Assembly (NCBI GenBank): GCA_030167865.1
Contig: JALAGF010002141.1
Span: forward strand, 62,001-124,773
Reading direction: 5' to 3'
DNA: 62,773 nucleotides
DNA from: Craspedostauros australis
Taxonomy: Eukaryota
In this document: one piece after another, positions 3-15,148 of the stretch
Layout of the letters: each line of letters starts with the position of its first letter
Numbering within the stretch: the stretch's first letter is position 1
Made by a program: the position numbers and the translations under genes
Notes under the pieces: generated by a model
The model's database searches: none
Told to the model about the DNA's origin: nothing
Seen by the model: only the letters and a program-made list of their open reading frames with translations

Positions 3-2378
3 GGCAAGGAGTACGCGATGCTGAAGAAGTACGTGGAGAACACGAGGAACGCGACCGCCGAAGGCGTCAGCGGTTGGGGTGGCAACGACTGGGGAAGTCG
101 CGGCCTGCGCTTGCTGGACGTTTTCGAGGTGGAACGCGAGGGAGAGGCGCCAAGATTCGAATCGTCCAAGGCGCTTGGCAACAGACGGTTGCTCTGGCAC
201 GGAAGCCGCATCAGTAACTACAGCGGTATCCTCAGCCAAGGATTGCGCATCGCGCCACCGGAGGCACCTGTGAGTGGTTACAGGTTCGGCAAGGGTATCT
301 ACTTCGCCGATATGCTCGGCAAGAGCGCGAACTATTGCCGCACCAACGGATCGTCCGAGATGCTCGTGATGGCGTGCGACGTCAGTTTGGGCAAGGCATT
401 CGAGACTCCCCATGATATGTACATGGACAAACCGCAGAAGGGCACCAACTCCACTCACGCATTGTCCGAAATCATCCCAGACCCAGACACCTATGAAGAG
501 ATCCAAGATGACCCCAAGGAAGACAACACGATGGACGATACCAATATGGTGAAGGTCCCGTTGGGGAAACCCATCAAGTCCTCCCTTGCGTCGCAACCGA
601 GCTGCGATGTGAGCGAATTCATCGTGTACGACATCGGCCAAGTCAACATTCGGTACCTCTTGCGTCTGACAACGAGCGATGAAACTGTCGCAGCAGACGA
701 TGCAGAAGCCGAAGACGAGGTGGAGAACGAAGCCGACGCCAAAGCCAAACCCGCCAGTGACGCCAACGACGACAATGGTGACGACGCAAAGCCTGCTGCG
801 AAGAAATCGCCGCCGAAACCATCAACAAAAGTACCTGCAACCGCAACCGCCACTTCCACCCCCATTGCTGCCAAGGCTGCGCCTGCGCCTTCTCCCAAGC
901 GGAAGCGTGCACCCAAGAAACCAAAAGCAGCTGCTGCGGCTGCAGCGCCCAAGTCGCCCACTAAAAGCGGCGGCGCCAAGAGCAAAGCGAAGCCCGCAAG
1001 CAAGCGCGCCAAAATGGCCCACGTGCCTGCAACCGCTTCTGCTCCTGCATCGGCCAAAAGCTCCATGAGCAAGTCTTCCACCACTAAGGCCTCCACCACC
1101 GCCAAGAGCCCCACCGCCAAAAGCTCCAACGCCAAGACCCCCAAGAAGGCAGTGACACCTCCTTCATTCATCGCACTGGAGAAGGAAGACACTTCCGTGC
1201 CATCGCTCTCAGGCGAGAAAGTGATCGAAAGCCTGACATTTGAAGGTGGTCTGCGCATCACGCTTGTCAAGGGTGACGTCGTGGAGTCCAAGACTGATGC
1301 AATTGCTGTATCATGCGATGACAAGCTGCAGCCATTGGGTGCAATTGGTACACGTGTGAAGGCGGCAGCTGGGCCCGACTTTGTGGCCGAGATTGATGCG
1401 CTGGTGCCTCCACCACCTAGTCCAACCGTGGCACCAGTCGTCGTCAGAACCAGCCCTCCCGACACCAAGCTCCCAGCCAACTTCAAGAGGATCTACAGCG
1501 GCCCAACCGCAGACACAATCCGCAATGTCATCATGGATGCTGACGAAGAGTGGGAGGATATGTTCTACCTCGTCGAGCAGACGGAGAAGTTGTCTTCCAA
1601 CGACGAAATCGTTTGCATCGAAGCCGATGGCACCTTCCGCAAGGGCGAGGAGGCGAGGAAGTTGCTGGGAGTCGGACATAAGCGCAACGAACACATCACC
1701 ATGAAGCAAATCCCAACAGGCGCGGAAGTGTACGTCCAAAGCAGCCCGCATCGGCGCATCAAGCCGCGCACGCCAATCCTTTTGGAACAGCTGATGCCCA
1801 TGTCAGATGATGAAGATGACGCTGCTGCTGCTGCTACCACCGCCACTCCTGCTGATGCTAGCACAGCTCCAGCCGTGGCGCCTGCGGTCGCAACCGCATC
1901 TGCGCCTGCATCTGCAGCACCACCGAAAACAACCGCGGCGTCCAAACCAGCAGCTCCCGCCAAGCCACTTGATTTGAAGATGACAGACGTCCACGCACTG
2001 AAGGGCCATTCCCTTGCCGCCTCCACCGTCATCAGCGTCGTCGAACTGAAATGCCCAGCCAGCCAACAGAAGAAGGGCAAAGAACTGCTGACGATGGCAG
2101 TGATGAACATGCTGAAGAAGTGCGCAGAGCTGAAGTTAACAAGCATCGCACTTCCCGGCTTCGACGTCGTTGGATCGACAATCAAGAAACGCGACACAGC
2201 CATGTGCACCATCAAGGCCATCGCAACATACTTGGCAGAGGCCAACGCCAACGACAACTCCAGCGCAAAAGGCTCCGGCAGCAGCCAGCCCATCAAGGAA
2301 GTGTGCTTCTGCATTGGGCACGCCCGTTCAGTTCAAGCCTACCACCAAGCCATGCAAAGCCAAGACCGTCCGGAGTAA
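3..2378 (+). CDS. Poly(ADP-ribose) polymerase (PARP1/2/3-type catalytic domain) fused to a C-terminal split macrodomain; 5' end lies upstream of the window
   Basis: Frame is open from nt 3 (GKEYAMLKKYV...). PARP signature LLWHGSRISNYSGILSQGLRIAPPEAPVSGYRFGKGIYFADMLGKSANYC and EFIVYD give an intact H-Y-E triad. A K/A/P-rich linker follows, then macrodomain motifs (ITLVKGDV..KTDAIA; later SIALPG, IKEVCFC). Confidence 0.92.
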   Translation, partial: GKEYAMLKKYVENTRNATAEGVSGWGGNDWGSRGLRLLDVFEVEREGEAPRFESSKALGNRRLLWHGSRISNYSGILSQGLRIAPPEAPVSGYRFGKGIYFADMLGKSANYCRTNGSSEMLVMACDVSLGKAFETPHDMYMDKPQKGTNSTHALSEIIPDPDTYEEIQDDPKEDNTMDDTNMVKVPLGKPIKSSLASQPSCDVSEFIVYDIGQVNIRYLLRLTTSDETVAADDAEAEDEVENEADAKAKPASDANDDNGDDAKPAAKKSPPKPSTKVPATATATSTPIAAKAAPAPSPKRKRAPKKPKAAAAAAAPKSPTKSGGAKSKAKPASKRAKMAHVPATASAPASAKSSMSKSSTTKASTTAKSPTAKSSNAKTPKKAVTPPSFIALEKEDTSVPSLSGEKVIESLTFEGGLRITLVKGDVVESKTDAIAVSCDDKLQPLGAIGTRVKAAAGPDFVAEIDALVPPPPSPTVAPVVVRTSPPDTKLPANFKRIYSGPTADTIRNVIMDADEEWEDMFYLVEQTEKLSSNDEIVCIEADGTFRKGEEARKLLGVGHKRNEHITMKQIPTGAEVYVQSSPHRRIKPRTPILLEQLMPMSDDEDDAAAAATTATPADASTAPAVAPAVATASAPASAAPPKTTAASKPAAPAKPLDLKMTDVHALKGHSLAASTVISVVELKCPASQQKKGKELLTMAVMNMLKKCAELKLTSIALPGFDVVGSTIKKRDTAMCTIKAIATYLAEANANDNSSAKGSGSSQPIKEVCFCIGHARSVQAYHQAMQSQDRPE

Positions 2379-2776
2379 CAAGGGCAGGCCTGGTGCAGGC
2401 TCAGCAGCAGTTTACATGGCCATGTTACGCAGCCACAACCGCTCATCAGGGTGGATGGGTGTGAGGATAATCGTACGTTTGAAGTAGTAGGCACTGGACA
2501 GTGCATGGAGGTGACTGGGGATGCCGCAATGCATTTTAAGTTTAGCACAAGTAGGATTAGTTGTTGACGCAACAGAGTGTATGGCAGTAGGATAGATCGC
2601 ACGCGCAGCAGCACAACTTTGTAGCTCATCACATGACAGGGAGCCTGTGGCAAATCCCAGGAAAGGAGAGAAGTGCGCAGGCACAAGGCACTGCCCACAA
2701 CAAGCGCCACAAAGGAAACTGTTCCTGTAGTCTGACTCATACAACTCCGAAACGGGAGCTCGCGGAGGCAGCAGGA

Positions 2777-9410: not shown

Positions 9411-10609
9411 ACTGCTTTCCTATGCCTCTGTCTATGCCTTCTTCCTGTTTGTTGCTGTGCTGTGCTGTGCTGCCTTTCCGTTCGCCGACCGCGCCGCTCG
9501 TTGCGATGATAGTGCTCGCGCTGGTGAAGGGGCTTGGCACGCAGGCGTCCGTTCATCAGCGCACTCGTTGTCGTACACGACCTACAATACGTGTTGCGCT
9601 CTACTGAGGCGTCGCGAGGGGAGTGCTCGTGAACGGCATGGGTGTGCCGTCGAGAACATCAACAAGTGCACATCGCGCGAGTGCTCCCGAGCATGCTCGA
9701 TTTGTGCTTGGTTGCCGGTCACCACCGAGTCACGGTCGTTCTCTTCGTCTCCTTCTCTCTGCTTCTCCACACTTTCATCCCTTGCGTGTTGCCTTCTGTT
9801 GTCTTGTTCGCCTGTGCTTTTTCTTGCTGCTTCGTGTGCGTGTTTTTGTTCTGTGGAATTGCGCCCGCCGTCGCGGATCGCGGAACGAAGCCAAACACGC
9901 TGAGGAAGACTCTGTCTGTGTTTCGACTGATACGACTATGAAACGACCCATGGACATTGCACACCCATTCTTACAGACAATAAAATGATGTGCTTGCTCA
10001 TGACCAACCATGACTGCAGCTGTTCTTTGGCGTTCGCTCTTGGGGACTGTTGTTGAAGTTGTATCACGAATGTCGTAGCAGATTTTGGCACGGCCACCGA
10101 GAATTATCGTCATGGGCGTGTTTTGGGTGCGTTCCATGCCGCTCACGTTGACGCAAGTACTCTATGAGCTGAGCGAGGTGGCGCCACCAAAACCACGAAG
10201 AAACGATCCATCATTGGCGTTTCACACAAACTGGTTGGCAAAACCATCAATGCATCCATCGCGTCTGGGTGCCTGCAACCAGAGCTTCAACTGCGCCAGT
10301 TCCATCATGATCCTTGTTGGGGTTGACCTTCACTTTACTTGGCGCGTTCCGGGTGACTCTCATGTTGCAAGGGTGTGGCCGAACGCGACGCAAGAGATGC
10401 TCGCACCGAGGCAGCCCTGAGGAAGGAGGCATCGGACAGTCGACCTCTCAGAACATTCGAACATCCCATCAGCTCTCCCTGTTGATGCCACCAGGGCTGG
10501 CGATACCCCAGAGACACGCTCCGTCACAAATCAGCGCCACGCCAGACCTCCACAAGTGGTCCGAAACGACATCGGCATCCACCTCGACTTCAAGCTCAAG
10601 CCTTCGATC

Positions 10610-13600
10610 ATGCCAAGCAGTGCAATTCACCGCAGCGTCATGCCAGCTGGGACAAATGCCATGCAGGGCAACATCGGCGACAACACCGACAACGACGCGA
10701 AGGACAACAGGAGGTCCACCATCATTGCAGACCTGACGTCCGGCCGTGAATTCTACGACGATGGTTACACGGAAGAAGAACAAAATGCGCCCGACCTGCC
10801 ATCTACCTTTGCGACAGGGGCGGCCTTGTCTGCTGCCGTTGGTGGTGCCGATGTTCGACATCAGAGCACCAACGTGAACATGAACGTCGGCATCGATCCA
10901 AACATAGCAACGGCAATGGACACGAATGTGAATATGCATGCACATGTGCATACGCATACGCAGACATATACGCAGACGAGCAGTCACAACAGGAGCTTCT
11001 CCGCCAACGCAGGCAGCACAAGGACTTCTACCGCACAGAATGGCGAAGCCTCGAACTCACCAACCGCTGTGATTGAAGAGGCTTCGTCGCCGCTGCCAAA
11101 ATCGCAGCATCTCTTTGGCAGAGAGAGGGAACTCCACCGGCTCACCCAAATCCACAAGACTTTGATCAAGCAGCCCGGCCACCGCGAACTCAACCGTGCA
11201 GAAGAACAACGAATCGGCTCCGCGACAGAGGCTGCAGCGACGAACCCAGCATCCATCTACCCGGCAGTTCTGGTTTGGGGAACCAGCGGGACGGGGAAAT
11301 CGAGACTGGTCAGGCACTTCCTTGATGTATCGTGCTGCACTTGCGGGGCCCGGCATCCCCAAGATCCTGACAGCGCTGACGATGATCATGCTCAGCGAGG
11401 CCAGCATTTTCAACGTGGGCGGCCGTGCTCTTGCTGCTACGTGCTGTGCGGCAAGTACGACGAGTACACGGGCAAGACTGATCCATTCTCTGCCATCATC
11501 CAGGCACTCAACGACTTTTCGGAGCAGCTCAGGATCGGCCCACCGCAGGAGTTGGAACGGATCCGCATGTCCATTTGGGATGCCTTTGGTGGCGGCGCGC
11601 AAAACAACGTGGATGGTCGCAAACAATCTGGCAGTACTCACAGTTCCCAGAGCGGCGGCGACGCAACCAGCGAACACGAAATCATCGATCAAGATCGCTC
11701 GGGTGAGCCGTCCATCAATGCACACCTGCATTCTGTGATGTCCGGATTGATTACGGTCGTCCCATCTCTCTCCATCCTGGCACCTCAACTCACTGCCCAT
11801 TCCTCAGGCTCCAGCGTTCTAGCAGGTGGCGAATCGGTCAGATCAGACGACACCTTCGATAAGAAGAACGCGGCACGGCGCACCCGCCGCGCGCATTCCG
11901 ACAATGAGAATGACGCGCACAGGAACTTCGTCATGCGGTCGGCATCGTCTGGATCCCTGTCCGTATCCACCTCGGGGCAGCGACGTGGAGCAGAGCCAAC
12001 GAAACTGCGATTGATGCATGACTCGCAATCGACATGGAATCGATTGCAGTATATCTTCATCCAATTCATGAAGGCAATCTCCACGCCCCAAAGGCCCGTG
12101 TACTTGTTCCTCGACGACTTGCAGTGGTCACCTTCCACCAGTCTCGAGTTGCTCGCGAGTCTCATCGCTGATCCCGATCTCAGCAGCTTCATGCTCCTGG
12201 CCACCATCCGGGAGGAGACCAACCCGCACAACGACGAGATCGTCGACTTCCCTTCGGACTCACCCTTGAAAGCCTCCTTCCTGAGTCGCCTGGCAGATTC
12301 AAACCAAGGTGATCGTGATTCTCATCATCGCACTTCTGCCCTTCCCGACGATGAACCAGAAAGAGCCCAAGCAACAACAACAATCACTCCAGCATCAGCT
12401 TCAGCAACTTCGGACAGTGCGAGCACGGAGCACGCAAGTTTCAAGAGACTGGAGCATCTCACCGTCGGCAACATGTCTCAGCAAGACACCGTCGATTGGC
12501 TATCCGAGCTCCTTGAGCGTGACGAGGATGACAGCGAGCTACGATTGCTCGCAAGGAAGCTCCACGAGAAGACGCATGGCAATGTGCTCTTCATGCTGCA
12601 GGGCATCGAGGAACTGAAACGAAAGAACATCCTCGTCTTCAGTCGTATCTCATTCCAGTGGGAATGGAATTTGATGAGCCTTCGGAAGAAGGGCGGCAAC
12701 AGCGACAGCGACAGAAAGAGCAACACCCACGCGAGCATGGGCGGCGGTGACGACGGCTACGACGATCTGGAGCTCCCCATCAGCGACAACATCATAGCAA
12801 CGATTGAATCGCAGCTCAAGCAGCTTCCGCCAGACCTCCAGCGCCTTCTGTCGATTGCTGCATACATCCGCGGTAATTTTGACACGCTTGTTCTGAGCCA
12901 TGTTCTGGAGAGCGAGGGATCGGAGGCTGATGGCATTTGGAACGCCAACAGCAACCCCGTCGCTCATGGAATGGATGGAACCGCAACCAGCCCGACATGG
13001 ACGGAAGCCAAAGTCCGAACGGTGCTGGAACAGGCCGCAGCTGAGAAGCTGGTCAACATAAACGTGGGCAAAGGGCAACACCGATTCGCTCACGATCGCA
13101 TCCAACAGGCTGCGTATGGGTTGATCCCGTACGGCGAAACGAGAGACAAGCTGCGGGTGAGGATTGGTCATTCCCTCTTGCAGTTGTATCGCCGTACGTG
13201 CGAATTGCACTACGATGATGACAATGACGATGACGACAGCCTGGGCAGTGGGAACTCCGAAGAGAACGATTCTCACGACGAGGTGAGTATCAGCTTGAAT
13301 GCTGATACCGACGCACCTGGAACACCGCAGGACGGACAAGCGGCTCATCCAGCAGCAACCAACAACAACAACAACAATTTGCTGTTTGTGGCGGCTGATC
13401 ACTTGAACAGCGTCCAAACGAAGGATCACATATTCTCGGGCACCCTCAATCTCGAGGTGGGCGAAAGGGCGTTGCAGATGGCATCCCTCGCGTCTGCTGC
13501 TGCGTACCTACAGAAGGCGTCGAACGAATTGAAGCGGGTTCGAAATCCATGGGAGGATCACTATGACACCACGCTGAGATTGTTTCGAGCACGGTCGGAG

Positions 13601-15148
13601 GTTGAGCTATCGCTGGGACATACCGAGATCGGTCACAAGCTCGGCTGGGAACTCATTGAACGAGCGCGATCGATTGACGAGAAACTTCCAACGTATCTAT
13701 CCATGGCGAAAGCGCTTGCACAGAAAGACGATATGAAGGCATCGTTGTCCATCAGTTTGCACGTGGTCAGGATGTTTGGAGCGTTCCCGAAACGATTTTA
13801 CGGCGTCTACATCACCAAGTCCATGATGCGAATCAATTCCTTCTTGAAGGCGCACTCGGATGAAGAGATCATCAATCTCCCGCTCCTTGACGATTCTCGG
13901 ACAGCCATCCTAATGCAGTTCATCACCGATATCGGCCTGCGGTCCTACATGAAGGGAGACTTCGTGCAGTGGATTGTGCACGTATGCCAAGGCGTCATGC
14001 TGATGATTGATCGTGGCATCTGCGAAGACTCCGTGTTGGGGTTGGCGAATTTTGGGATCGTGTGGAGCACGATTACGAACGATCACCAAATGGCTCTGCG
14101 ATGCGCGGACATGGCCCTCGCGATCCGAGACAGAATCGACGGAAGGAAGATCGCCGGGTGGGCCTACGTTTCCACATGCGGAGTGGCGTATCCGTATTCA
14201 CGCTCCCTGAAAACGATCGAGCAGATGTACCAGAAGGGATACAACCTCGCCATGCAGACTGGAGAATTCGAAACGGGCATGTGGAACCTGCTGCTGCGCG
14301 ACATCACCGAGTTCTGCGCTGGCCGCAACCTCCAGGAGCTCGTAAGGCGATTCGAGCATTCCTTGCAACAGGACAAGATCTATTCGGTGGGAACCACAAC
14401 CGGCTTTTCGACGGCTATATTCCACATGCTGCAGCGCTTGGCCGGTAAGCGTCCGATTGATTGGGATGCGGTTGAGAAGCTCTCGCACCGAGACGTCAGG
14501 AAGGACCCGCCGGAACAAGCCAGGGTGCTGGAAGTTTCATTCCAGATCTATGCGGGCGCGCGATTTGCCCTGTACTTTCGCAAGTACCAGCTTGCCGATC
14601 GATTGCTGAAGCAGTATCTGGTACTCTCCAAGCCTGAGAAGTCCTACATGCGCATGGTCTGCCGCGGCCTTCTGTCGGGACTGACAGCATCCGCCATGTT
14701 CCGTTCGACGCGGAAGCGCAAATACAAGCGTATTCTGAAGCGCCGGAAGCTCTCGTACCAACGCATGGCCGACACGAAAGGAGAAAACGTTCGATTCCAT
14801 GCCCTGATCCTCGAGGCGGAAGAAGAATCATTGGCCAGCGCTCGGCCCAGCGCCGCTCGCATCCGGCACGTTCGGGAGGCGTACGACCGCGCCATCCGAT
14901 GCGCGGCCAAGACGCCGCTGGTTCAGTATGCAGCTCTCGGGTGCGAGCTGGCAGCTGAATTCTTCATCAGGATGCAATCCAGGGTGGGCGACCAGAAACA
15001 CGACGAAGATGGCGGTGCGGCAGTCGTATCGGCAGACATAATCAAGTCGTATCTCGTGGAGGCGGTGGAGTGGTACAAGAAGTGGGGGTGCGCGTTGAAG
15101 GTCGACGATATCGAGAAGAGGCATTCCGGATACTTGCAGAATTGGTGA
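10610..15148 (+). CDS. STAND-class P-loop ATPase (AAA_16-like) with C-terminal TPR-like helical region, about 1510 aa, intronless
   Basis: Walker A VLVWGTSGTGKS, GKYDE..DPFSAIIQAL, Walker B VYLFLDDLQW, KTHGNVLF (GNP-like motif), HRFAHDRIQQAAY, helical repeats, and terminal AVEWYKKWGCALKV typical of the ATPase/TPR module of bacterial Ser/Thr-kinase-ATPase-His-kinase proteins. First ATG is at 10610; the ORF track starts at GTG 10556. Confidence 0.9.
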   Translation: MPSSAIHRSVMPAGTNAMQGNIGDNTDNDAKDNRRSTIIADLTSGREFYDDGYTEEEQNAPDLPSTFATGAALSAAVGGADVRHQSTNVNMNVGIDPNIATAMDTNVNMHAHVHTHTQTYTQTSSHNRSFSANAGSTRTSTAQNGEASNSPTAVIEEASSPLPKSQHLFGRERELHRLTQIHKTLIKQPGHRELNRAEEQRIGSATEAAATNPASIYPAVLVWGTSGTGKSRLVRHFLDVSCCTCGARHPQDPDSADDDHAQRGQHFQRGRPCSCCYVLCGKYDEYTGKTDPFSAIIQALNDFSEQLRIGPPQELERIRMSIWDAFGGGAQNNVDGRKQSGSTHSSQSGGDATSEHEIIDQDRSGEPSINAHLHSVMSGLITVVPSLSILAPQLTAHSSGSSVLAGGESVRSDDTFDKKNAARRTRRAHSDNENDAHRNFVMRSASSGSLSVSTSGQRRGAEPTKLRLMHDSQSTWNRLQYIFIQFMKAISTPQRPVYLFLDDLQWSPSTSLELLASLIADPDLSSFMLLATIREETNPHNDEIVDFPSDSPLKASFLSRLADSNQGDRDSHHRTSALPDDEPERAQATTTITPASASATSDSASTEHASFKRLEHLTVGNMSQQDTVDWLSELLERDEDDSELRLLARKLHEKTHGNVLFMLQGIEELKRKNILVFSRISFQWEWNLMSLRKKGGNSDSDRKSNTHASMGGGDDGYDDLELPISDNIIATIESQLKQLPPDLQRLLSIAAYIRGNFDTLVLSHVLESEGSEADGIWNANSNPVAHGMDGTATSPTWTEAKVRTVLEQAAAEKLVNINVGKGQHRFAHDRIQQAAYGLIPYGETRDKLRVRIGHSLLQLYRRTCELHYDDDNDDDDSLGSGNSEENDSHDEVSISLNADTDAPGTPQDGQAAHPAATNNNNNNLLFVAADHLNSVQTKDHIFSGTLNLEVGERALQMASLASAAAYLQKASNELKRVRNPWEDHYDTTLRLFRARSEVELSLGHTEIGHKLGWELIERARSIDEKLPTYLSMAKALAQKDDMKASLSISLHVVRMFGAFPKRFYGVYITKSMMRINSFLKAHSDEEIINLPLLDDSRTAILMQFITDIGLRSYMKGDFVQWIVHVCQGVMLMIDRGICEDSVLGLANFGIVWSTITNDHQMALRCADMALAIRDRIDGRKIAGWAYVSTCGVAYPYSRSLKTIEQMYQKGYNLAMQTGEFETGMWNLLLRDITEFCAGRNLQELVRRFEHSLQQDKIYSVGTTTGFSTAIFHMLQRLAGKRPIDWDAVEKLSHRDVRKDPPEQARVLEVSFQIYAGARFALYFRKYQLADRLLKQYLVLSKPEKSYMRMVCRGLLSGLTASAMFRSTRKRKYKRILKRRKLSYQRMADTKGENVRFHALILEAEEESLASARPSAARIRHVREAYDRAIRCAAKTPLVQYAALGCELAAEFFIRMQSRVGDQKHDEDGGAAVVSADIIKSYLVEAVEWYKKWGCALKVDDIEKRHSGYLQNW

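Follow-up and report, generated by a model that had tools for sequence, protein, structure and literature searches.

A predicted PARP1-type protein with a C-terminal macroH2A-type macrodomain, and its paralogue, in the diatom Craspedostauros australis

We analysed 62,773 nt of the Craspedostauros australis assembly GCA_030167865.1 (contig JALAGF010002141.1; G000:C2141:62001-124773), hereafter the window, whose start falls inside a PARP1 orthologue gene. Judged by its predicted domains, this gene is of the PARP1 (clade 1) type, with WGR, regulatory and H-Y-E catalytic domains behind an N-terminal finger and PADR1, and the catalytic domain is followed by a macrodomain that sequence comparison assigns to the macroH2A type. 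The best explanation of these sequences is a vertically inherited stramenopile PARP1 that carries a C-terminal macroH2A-type macrodomain in diatoms, and the window copy is best read as the derived member of a paralogue pair, after duplication. As to function, we lean slightly towards a PARP1 that is activated by DNA breaks and has its own ADP-ribose reader as brake or anchor; this enzyme would have been duplicated, and the window copy would have been released from the reader.

The gene is bigger than the preliminary description of this DNA had stated, and the window holds its 3' half. Frame 3-2378 is uninterrupted, contains no N and is a piece of a 1,445-codon open frame; its ATG precedes the window by 1,909 nt (G000:C2141:60092), and the product (P0002) has 1,428 aa. 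Pfam scans of the full-length protein, including its upstream part, found zf-PARP, PADR1_N, WGR and PARP_reg (Table 1) but neither Zn2 nor BRCT, and the domain order is Zn1, Zn3, WGR, helical domain, H-Y-E catalytic domain, linker and macrodomain. The PADR1_N match of P0002 (E 7e-4) is below the Pfam cut-off and that of its relatives above it. The zf-PARP finger is nearer to Zn1 (40%) than to Zn2 (26%) of mammalian PARP1. One 721-nt contig from a sequencing run, the kind of which is a guess, is identical to window positions 1852-2499 and covers neither the linker nor the catalytic domain; it was left out of the evidence.

Table 1. Locations of the predicted features of the window gene and of related genes in the genome
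Feature	Location	Strand	Detail
PARP1 orthologue, 3' part	3..2378	+	residues 638-1428 and stop; single-frame 1,428-aa protein
Zn1 (zf-PARP)	P0002 residues 14-94, upstream of window		Pfam, E 7e-15
Zn3/PADR1	P0002 residues 110-215, upstream of window		Pfam PADR1_N 110-172
WGR	P0002 residues 346-429, upstream of window		Pfam
Helical domain (PARP_reg)	P0002 residues 465-624, upstream of window		Pfam
ART catalytic domain	6..668	+	Pfam PARP, E 8e-54; P0002 residues 639-859
Acidic linker segment	675..791	+	39 aa, net charge -13
Basic Lys/Ala/Pro/Ser/Thr segment	792..1166	+	125 aa, 20% Lys, net +28, no acidic residue
MacroH2A-type macrodomain, N-terminal half	1203..1403	+	adenine-side Asp (D1062) and G224 equivalent (G1083) kept
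Inserted domain X	1473..1787	+	105 aa; Pro/Ala-rich spacers on both sides
MacroH2A-type macrodomain, C-terminal half	1974..2357	+	diphosphate loop and aromatic-Asp pair lost
Paralogue	L006:3207-7253 (G000:C3431)	-	macrodomain pocket and domain X motif intact
WGR-WWE-WGR-regulatory-catalytic PARP	L007:3320-5845	-	PARP3-like acceptor motif
Ankyrin-repeat clade 1 PARP, very long	L008:5590-9999	-	3,391-codon frame
Microbial-type PARG	L021:1333-2541 (G000:C8)		intact GGG-x-QEE catalytic motif
MacroD-type macrodomain protein, 651 aa	L012:928-2883 (G000:C1652)		Pfam E 7e-27
Two related stand-alone macrodomain proteins	L018:1180-2148, L019:1309-2655		long insertions

The preliminary description had placed a PARP1/2/3-like catalytic domain with an intact H-Y-E triad at nt 3-~670. 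This held: the Pfam match extends over nt 6-668, and the triad consists of H703 (nt 198), Y737 (nt 300) and E842 (nt 615). Among solved structures PARP1 matched best (E 2e-51), followed by PARP2 (3e-36) and PARP3 (5e-22). The claim of a poly-ADP-ribose writer was weakened. In the poly(ADP-ribose)-forming acceptor set of PARP1, H826/M890/K903/Y986 (residue roles: PMC10711553, PMC6486540), three residues are changed and only K903 is kept, as K744 (nt 321); the M890 equivalent is R731 (nt 282), the Y986 equivalent is V840 (nt 609), and the loop matching the PARP1 H826 loop contains no His. PARP3, which acts as a mono-transferase although it has the H-Y-E triad, likewise carries Arg in place of M890 and lacks H826 (PMC10711553; PMC6486540). 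PARP4 is another H-Y-E mono-transferase (PMC10711553), and its catalytic domain is not C-terminal (PMC2964712), as in the window copy. Unlike these two, the window copy has a PARP1-like sequence and domain set, and the genome has a separate PARP3-like gene. Among 122 proteins, 16 motif matches have Arg where PARP1 has M890 and 107 have Met; since amoebozoan PARP1s are among those with Arg, this residue by itself is no proof of mono activity, and the intact microbial PARG of the genome also counts against that reading. Nevertheless, the altered acceptor site makes single units or short chains likelier products than long polymer, and the label 'poly' appears doubtful for this enzyme.

The WGR residues W589 and R591, which we take to carry the break signal of PARP1, have kept equivalents in the window copy. 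Zinc-ligand residues were checked on P0124: among C21, C24, H53 and C56, presumably the four zinc ligands of Zn1, only the first Cys is kept in 5/5 diatom proteins, and all four positions are kept in Cantina and Hondaea. The loss of three ligands in diatoms means that DNA-break sensing may be altered there. Equivalents of F44 and D45 (Zn1), W318 (Zn3) and L713 (helical domain), which carry the break signal in PARP1 (PMC6953017), are all kept. The window copy therefore resembles PARP1 in Zn1, Zn3/PADR1, WGR, helical domain, H-Y-E triad and allosteric residues, but lacks Zn2, BRCT and three Zn1 zinc-ligand positions, has an altered acceptor site, and carries ~570 additional C-terminal residues (linker, macrodomain and domain X).

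A macrodomain, as proposed in the preliminary description, is present (Pfam Macro, E 2.5e-7), but it is split into two halves by a folded insert of 105 aa (domain X), and its ligand loop is degenerate. MacroH2A topped the solved-structure matches for the macrodomains of the window copy, the paralogue (macroH2A E 2e-21 versus PARP14 1e-9), Stephanopyxis (2e-27) and Cantina (3e-24); the macroH2A-type assignment is thus one by best match among solved macrodomains, with no tree including macroH2A. As in macroH2A1.1, the macrodomain is preceded by an unstructured linker, and intact diatom copies keep the equivalents of the pocket residues G224 and G314. It differs from macroH2A1.1 in being fused to PARP1, not to histone H2A (no histone domain was found in Pfam scans of the full-length proteins), and in that domain X interrupts the pennate-type copies. 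PARP9/14/15 (clade 3) likewise join macrodomains to a PARP catalytic domain within a single protein; however, their macrodomains are N-terminal and their catalytic domain lacks the Glu (PMC2964712), whereas the window gene is of clade 1, keeps the Glu and has its macrodomain at the C-terminal side.

A macrodomain in this position might instead hydrolyse the enzyme's own mono-ADP-ribose marks, making the protein a fusion of writer and eraser. NCBIfam O-acetyl-ADP-ribose deacetylase models do match, with 52 of 200 bits and thus short of their cut-offs, and the relative P0004 carries that name in a database. MacroD hydrolases, however, have a conserved Asn and a glycine-rich catalytic loop (PMC7050489), both absent from the diatom copies, all of which have Asp and a single Gly; moreover, MacroD structures rank far below macroH2A, and the genome has a separate MacroD-type gene. 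We regard the eraser as the least probable of the readings considered.

In the window copy, the Gly-rich diphosphate loop is replaced (PGFDVVG versus PSIGSGR), and GH stands in place of the aromatic-Asp pair that follows the last strand, a pair which we take to be a ligand-site feature. Substitutions G224E and G314E abolish PAR binding by macroH2A1.1 (PMC5770377). Mapped with a single numbering offset on chain 1zr3, which puts glycines at both positions, the G224 equivalent is kept in the window copy, the G314 position is Val and the G312 position is Asp. The paralogue and the other diatom proteins keep the G224 and G314 equivalents, and the G312 and G314 glycines are present in 4/4 other full-length diatom proteins. 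Relative to Seminavis, the C-terminal module has accumulated 83 window-specific and 24 paralogue-specific changes, compared with 54 and 52 in the PARP core. Because the diphosphate loop is lost and the C-terminal module evolves ~3.5 times faster than that of the paralogue, the window-copy macrodomain has probably lost its pocket and is probably not a reader, contrary to the preliminary description; macroH2A1.2 and macroH2A2 are similarly non-binding (PMC7300387). The paralogue macrodomain probably is a reader. Structure prediction from the single sequence gave a poor model of the macrodomain region (pLDDT 43.9).

Plain decay would leave a similar picture, with the C-terminal module of the window copy functionless after duplication: macrodomain and domain X change 3.5-fold faster, and near-invariant residues of X are lost. 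Yet the 570 codons past the catalytic domain have stayed open though synonymous sites are almost saturated (pS 0.72), the pairwise dN/dS is about 0.23 (a rough value that averages both copies), and the window X sequence still models at pLDDT 95.8, although the family alignment drives this prediction. We give decay only a slim chance, and prefer a C-terminal module that may be retained in another role.

The paralogue (P0003; 1,286 aa, 62% identical) lies on another contig with different neighbours and has the same domain order. With the paralogue as query, a homologue search yielded 1,268 proteins among 8,000 candidates. Four of the best 120 listed carry a macrodomain: those of Seminavis robusta (named 'polymerase 1' in public databases), a Logan contig, a cluster including Stephanopyxis turris, and Cantina marsupialis. 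The paralogue, Seminavis, Stephanopyxis and Cantina thus bear out the proposed fusion, in stramenopiles, of an H-Y-E catalytic domain with a macrodomain on its C-terminal side. The Stephanopyxis protein (1,340 aa) is an MMETSP-labelled product and that of Cantina, a non-diatom stramenopile, a complete Trinity ORF; both are transcriptome products, and therefore catalytic domain and macrodomain share a transcript in orthologues. By sequence, the fusion is conserved across centric and pennate diatoms, with a patchy distribution. When the C-terminal region of the window copy itself served as query, none of 7,999 candidates matched, and a metagenome scan found one ordinary bacterial macrodomain gene.

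In a tree of the regulatory and catalytic region (28 rows, of which long-branch rows are unreliable), window copy and paralogue grouped together (100/100), followed by Seminavis (99/97) and then by Stephanopyxis with the Logan protein (100/99); diatoms, Cantina and Hondaea formed one clade (100/99). The grouping points to a raphid pennate diatom as the most likely host, and the tree lent no support to a horizontal transfer of the PARP. The Hondaea orthologue has no macrodomain, and that of Cantina lacks the adenine-side Asp. Since Cantina and diatom macrodomains score higher against macroH2A (78-100 bits each) than against each other (42-61 bits), these sequences may go back either to one ancient fusion followed by losses or to two independent capture events. 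Between its catalytic domain and macrodomain, the Cantina protein (P0019) has a probable second BRCT-like region (weak Pfam match), and it has an acidic insertion close to the macrodomain end.

The linker between catalytic domain and macrodomain had been described as ~190 aa, basic and H1-like. Its length is indeed 186 aa in the window copy, but only nt 792-1166 are basic and the preceding nt 675-791 are acidic; the acidic segment is a possible Asp/Glu automodification region. Four S/T-P-x-K/R motifs occur across the whole linker. The basic segment resembles an H1 tail in composition only, and Pfam found no winged-helix globular domain of linker histone H1 in P0002. Other diatom linkers have 76-107 aa with 4-7% Lys, so that the basic tether did not prove to be a family trait and the long H1-like linker is restricted to the window copy. 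We read the linker as coding because the basic segment has a codon-position bias, a low T content (0.11) and no consensus splice donor inside; an in-frame intron was rejected because of the composition and the missing donor motifs.

Domain X shares homology (profile-profile probability 99.9%) with the domain that ends vWA and DUF2135 proteins of bacteria, phages and protists, and matches the C-terminal part of PHROG 26613. Searching with X yielded 147 proteins among 8,000 candidates, mostly with X joined to vWA or DUF2135; among the best 120 listed, BRCT was joined to X in 4 and PARP or Macro in 0. This search was incomplete, as it missed the Seminavis PARP despite its being in the seed. We discarded two of seven early matches, to a kinase-repeat and a long repeat protein, as spurious. 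In the PHROG 26613-type vWA and DUF2135 proteins, X is terminal and joined to vWA, DUF2135, BRCT or RING, unlike in the window copy. Further X-carrying proteins from diatoms and other organisms (P0005, P0008, P0011, P0142-P0147) include some in which a vWA or DUF2135-like core has a domain X at either end, as well as BRCT-X proteins and, from Dictyostelium, DUF2135-X proteins.

The insertion of X that splits the macrodomain was also found in the paralogue, Seminavis and a JGI fragment. In the Stephanopyxis and Logan proteins X is N-terminal and the macrodomain whole, and the Cantina orthologue has no X. Because X is an insert in some relatives and N-terminal in others, it has changed its place within the gene and yet remained linked to the PARP. 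Across a 101-row alignment of X, the Ser and Arg positions of the motif show little or no variation; a Lys found in 99 rows and a Ser found in 100 are missing from the window copy but retained by the paralogue. Domain X had no match in Pfam, NCBIfam or Atlas, nothing below E 0.5 in a PDB sequence search, none at E 0.001 with Foldseek against PDB and BFVD, and none at Z 5 or more in VIA structure comparison. The best structural match had Z 3.8 (rmsd 2.8, 52/107 aligned), with rows for the beta-grasp proteins ThiS/MoaD and for LysM tied at Z 3-3.7. These missing matches are no proof of a new fold. Domain X is nevertheless widespread, predicted to fold well and marked by a strictly conserved motif, with neither family nor structure in the libraries searched.

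Genes for vWA-X proteins are common in myxobacteria, cyanobacteria and large phages. An NAD-dependent DNA ligase gene lies beside them in 32/42 cyanobacterial loci versus 0/38 others, with vWA-X usually directly upstream of ligA on the same strand (L053-L101); this is one inherited linkage and only a hint. A neighbour scan gave no ADP-ribosylation context for vWA-X genes, with no PARP or macrodomain gene among 1,187 ORFs at 141 loci (16/77 viral loci matching the vWA part alone were excluded).

The preliminary description had taken the window gene for an intact poly(ADP-ribose) writer with basic tether and reader, possibly serving in stress or defence. The triad, the K903 equivalent, D1062 and G1083 are kept as this would demand, the genome has a microbial PARG, and X occurs also in large phages and many bacteria. 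The diphosphate loop and aromatic-Asp pair are gone, however, the acceptor site is altered, the tether is not conserved, and the scan of 141 vWA-X loci gave no PARP or macrodomain gene. As for defence, the N-terminal half corresponds to the part of PARP1 that senses DNA breaks, and no defence genes were identified among the neighbours scanned. We consider such a system very unlikely.

The macrodomain of macroH2A1.1 alone binds and inhibits automodified PARP1 at a near-equimolar ratio, for which an intact pocket is needed (PMC7300387), and macroH2A1.1 can also recruit active PARP1 (PMC7300387; PMC6189284). We hypothesize that the diatom enzyme is switched on at DNA strand breaks like PARP1, via Zn1, Zn3, WGR and helical domain, and would then use NAD+ to ADP-ribosylate itself and chromatin, probably adding single units or short chains. 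In the ancestral form, represented by the paralogue, Seminavis and Stephanopyxis, the tethered macrodomain would bind this ADP-ribose without cleaving it. As the fusion is covalent, the ratio of macrodomain to PARP1 would be fixed, at 1:1. Binding would either limit further synthesis or keep the enzyme in place, a cis counterpart of the trans action of macroH2A1.1 on animal PARP1; the tethered reader could also retain or stimulate rather than inhibit, since macroH2A1.1 itself does both. After duplication, the catalytic core would have been preserved in the window copy, the reader pocket and the conserved domain X surface would have disappeared, and the H1-like basic tail would have been added, making it an unbraked and more chromatin-bound paralogue in which the C-terminal module may be retained as a scaffold.

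The macrodomain might also bind the marks of other PARPs and concentrate the enzyme at damage in a feed-forward manner, as in macro-PARPs, with no inhibition involved. The macrodomains of PARP9/14/15, N-terminal to the catalytic domain, do act as readers (PMC4245714; PMC2964712), the recruitment of active PARP1 by macroH2A1.1 is a precedent (PMC7300387; PMC6189284), and two further PARPs in this genome could lay the first marks. Such an amplifier would nevertheless leave unexplained why the captured domain is of the macroH2A type, and the window copy has lost its pocket though its core is as well conserved as that of the paralogue. We rate it unlikely, though it is the main rival of the brake.

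In the largely open-access literature searched, we found no description of PARP1 with a C-terminal macrodomain. In two family surveys, as far as consulted, macrodomains occur only on the N-terminal side of clade 3 catalytic domains (PMC2964712, PMC4245714). Diatoms were first reported to lack PARPs (PMC2964712), which was corrected for Thalassiosira oceanica (PMC4245714), and as a consequence diatom ADP-ribosylation is nearly unstudied. A review asks when macroH2A gained its PARP1-inhibiting function (PMC7300387). A natural PARP1-macroH2A-type fusion far from animals makes this question testable with one protein, and the genome supplies a matched pair, with the pocket intact in the paralogue and lost in the window copy; the paralogue is the better subject for experiments. 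In a joint reading that we put forward tentatively, as possible rather than probable, stramenopiles hard-wired the histone-variant PARP1 brake of animals, diatoms use a zinc-free break-sensing finger, the mobile domain X with its undescribed fold binds a nick- or adenylate-type ligand, and the paralogues are a braked and an unbraked form. Such a ligand is hinted at because X lies upstream of NAD-dependent DNA ligase in cyanobacteria. If true, a macroH2A-type macrodomain would be tied to PARP1 outside the holozoan lineage, and taming PARP1 would therefore be the original role of this macrodomain class and no late add-on.

None of the five Macro matches in this fragmented assembly (6,734 contigs) is a macroH2A, but a gene for one may have been missed in an assembly so broken up. 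The region after the macrodomain in the MacroD-type protein (L012) looks by eye like a class M sirtuin, although Pfam gave no match; the protein resembles macrodomain-SirTM pairs described for bacteria and fungi. The upstream neighbour of the window gene encodes PP4 regulatory subunit 3 (L005:1297-4062), an adjacency that is probably incidental because the paralogue has other neighbours. Further into the window, a frame of 1,575 codons at positions 10421-15148 encodes an AAA_16 ATPase domain together with a long helical C-terminus.
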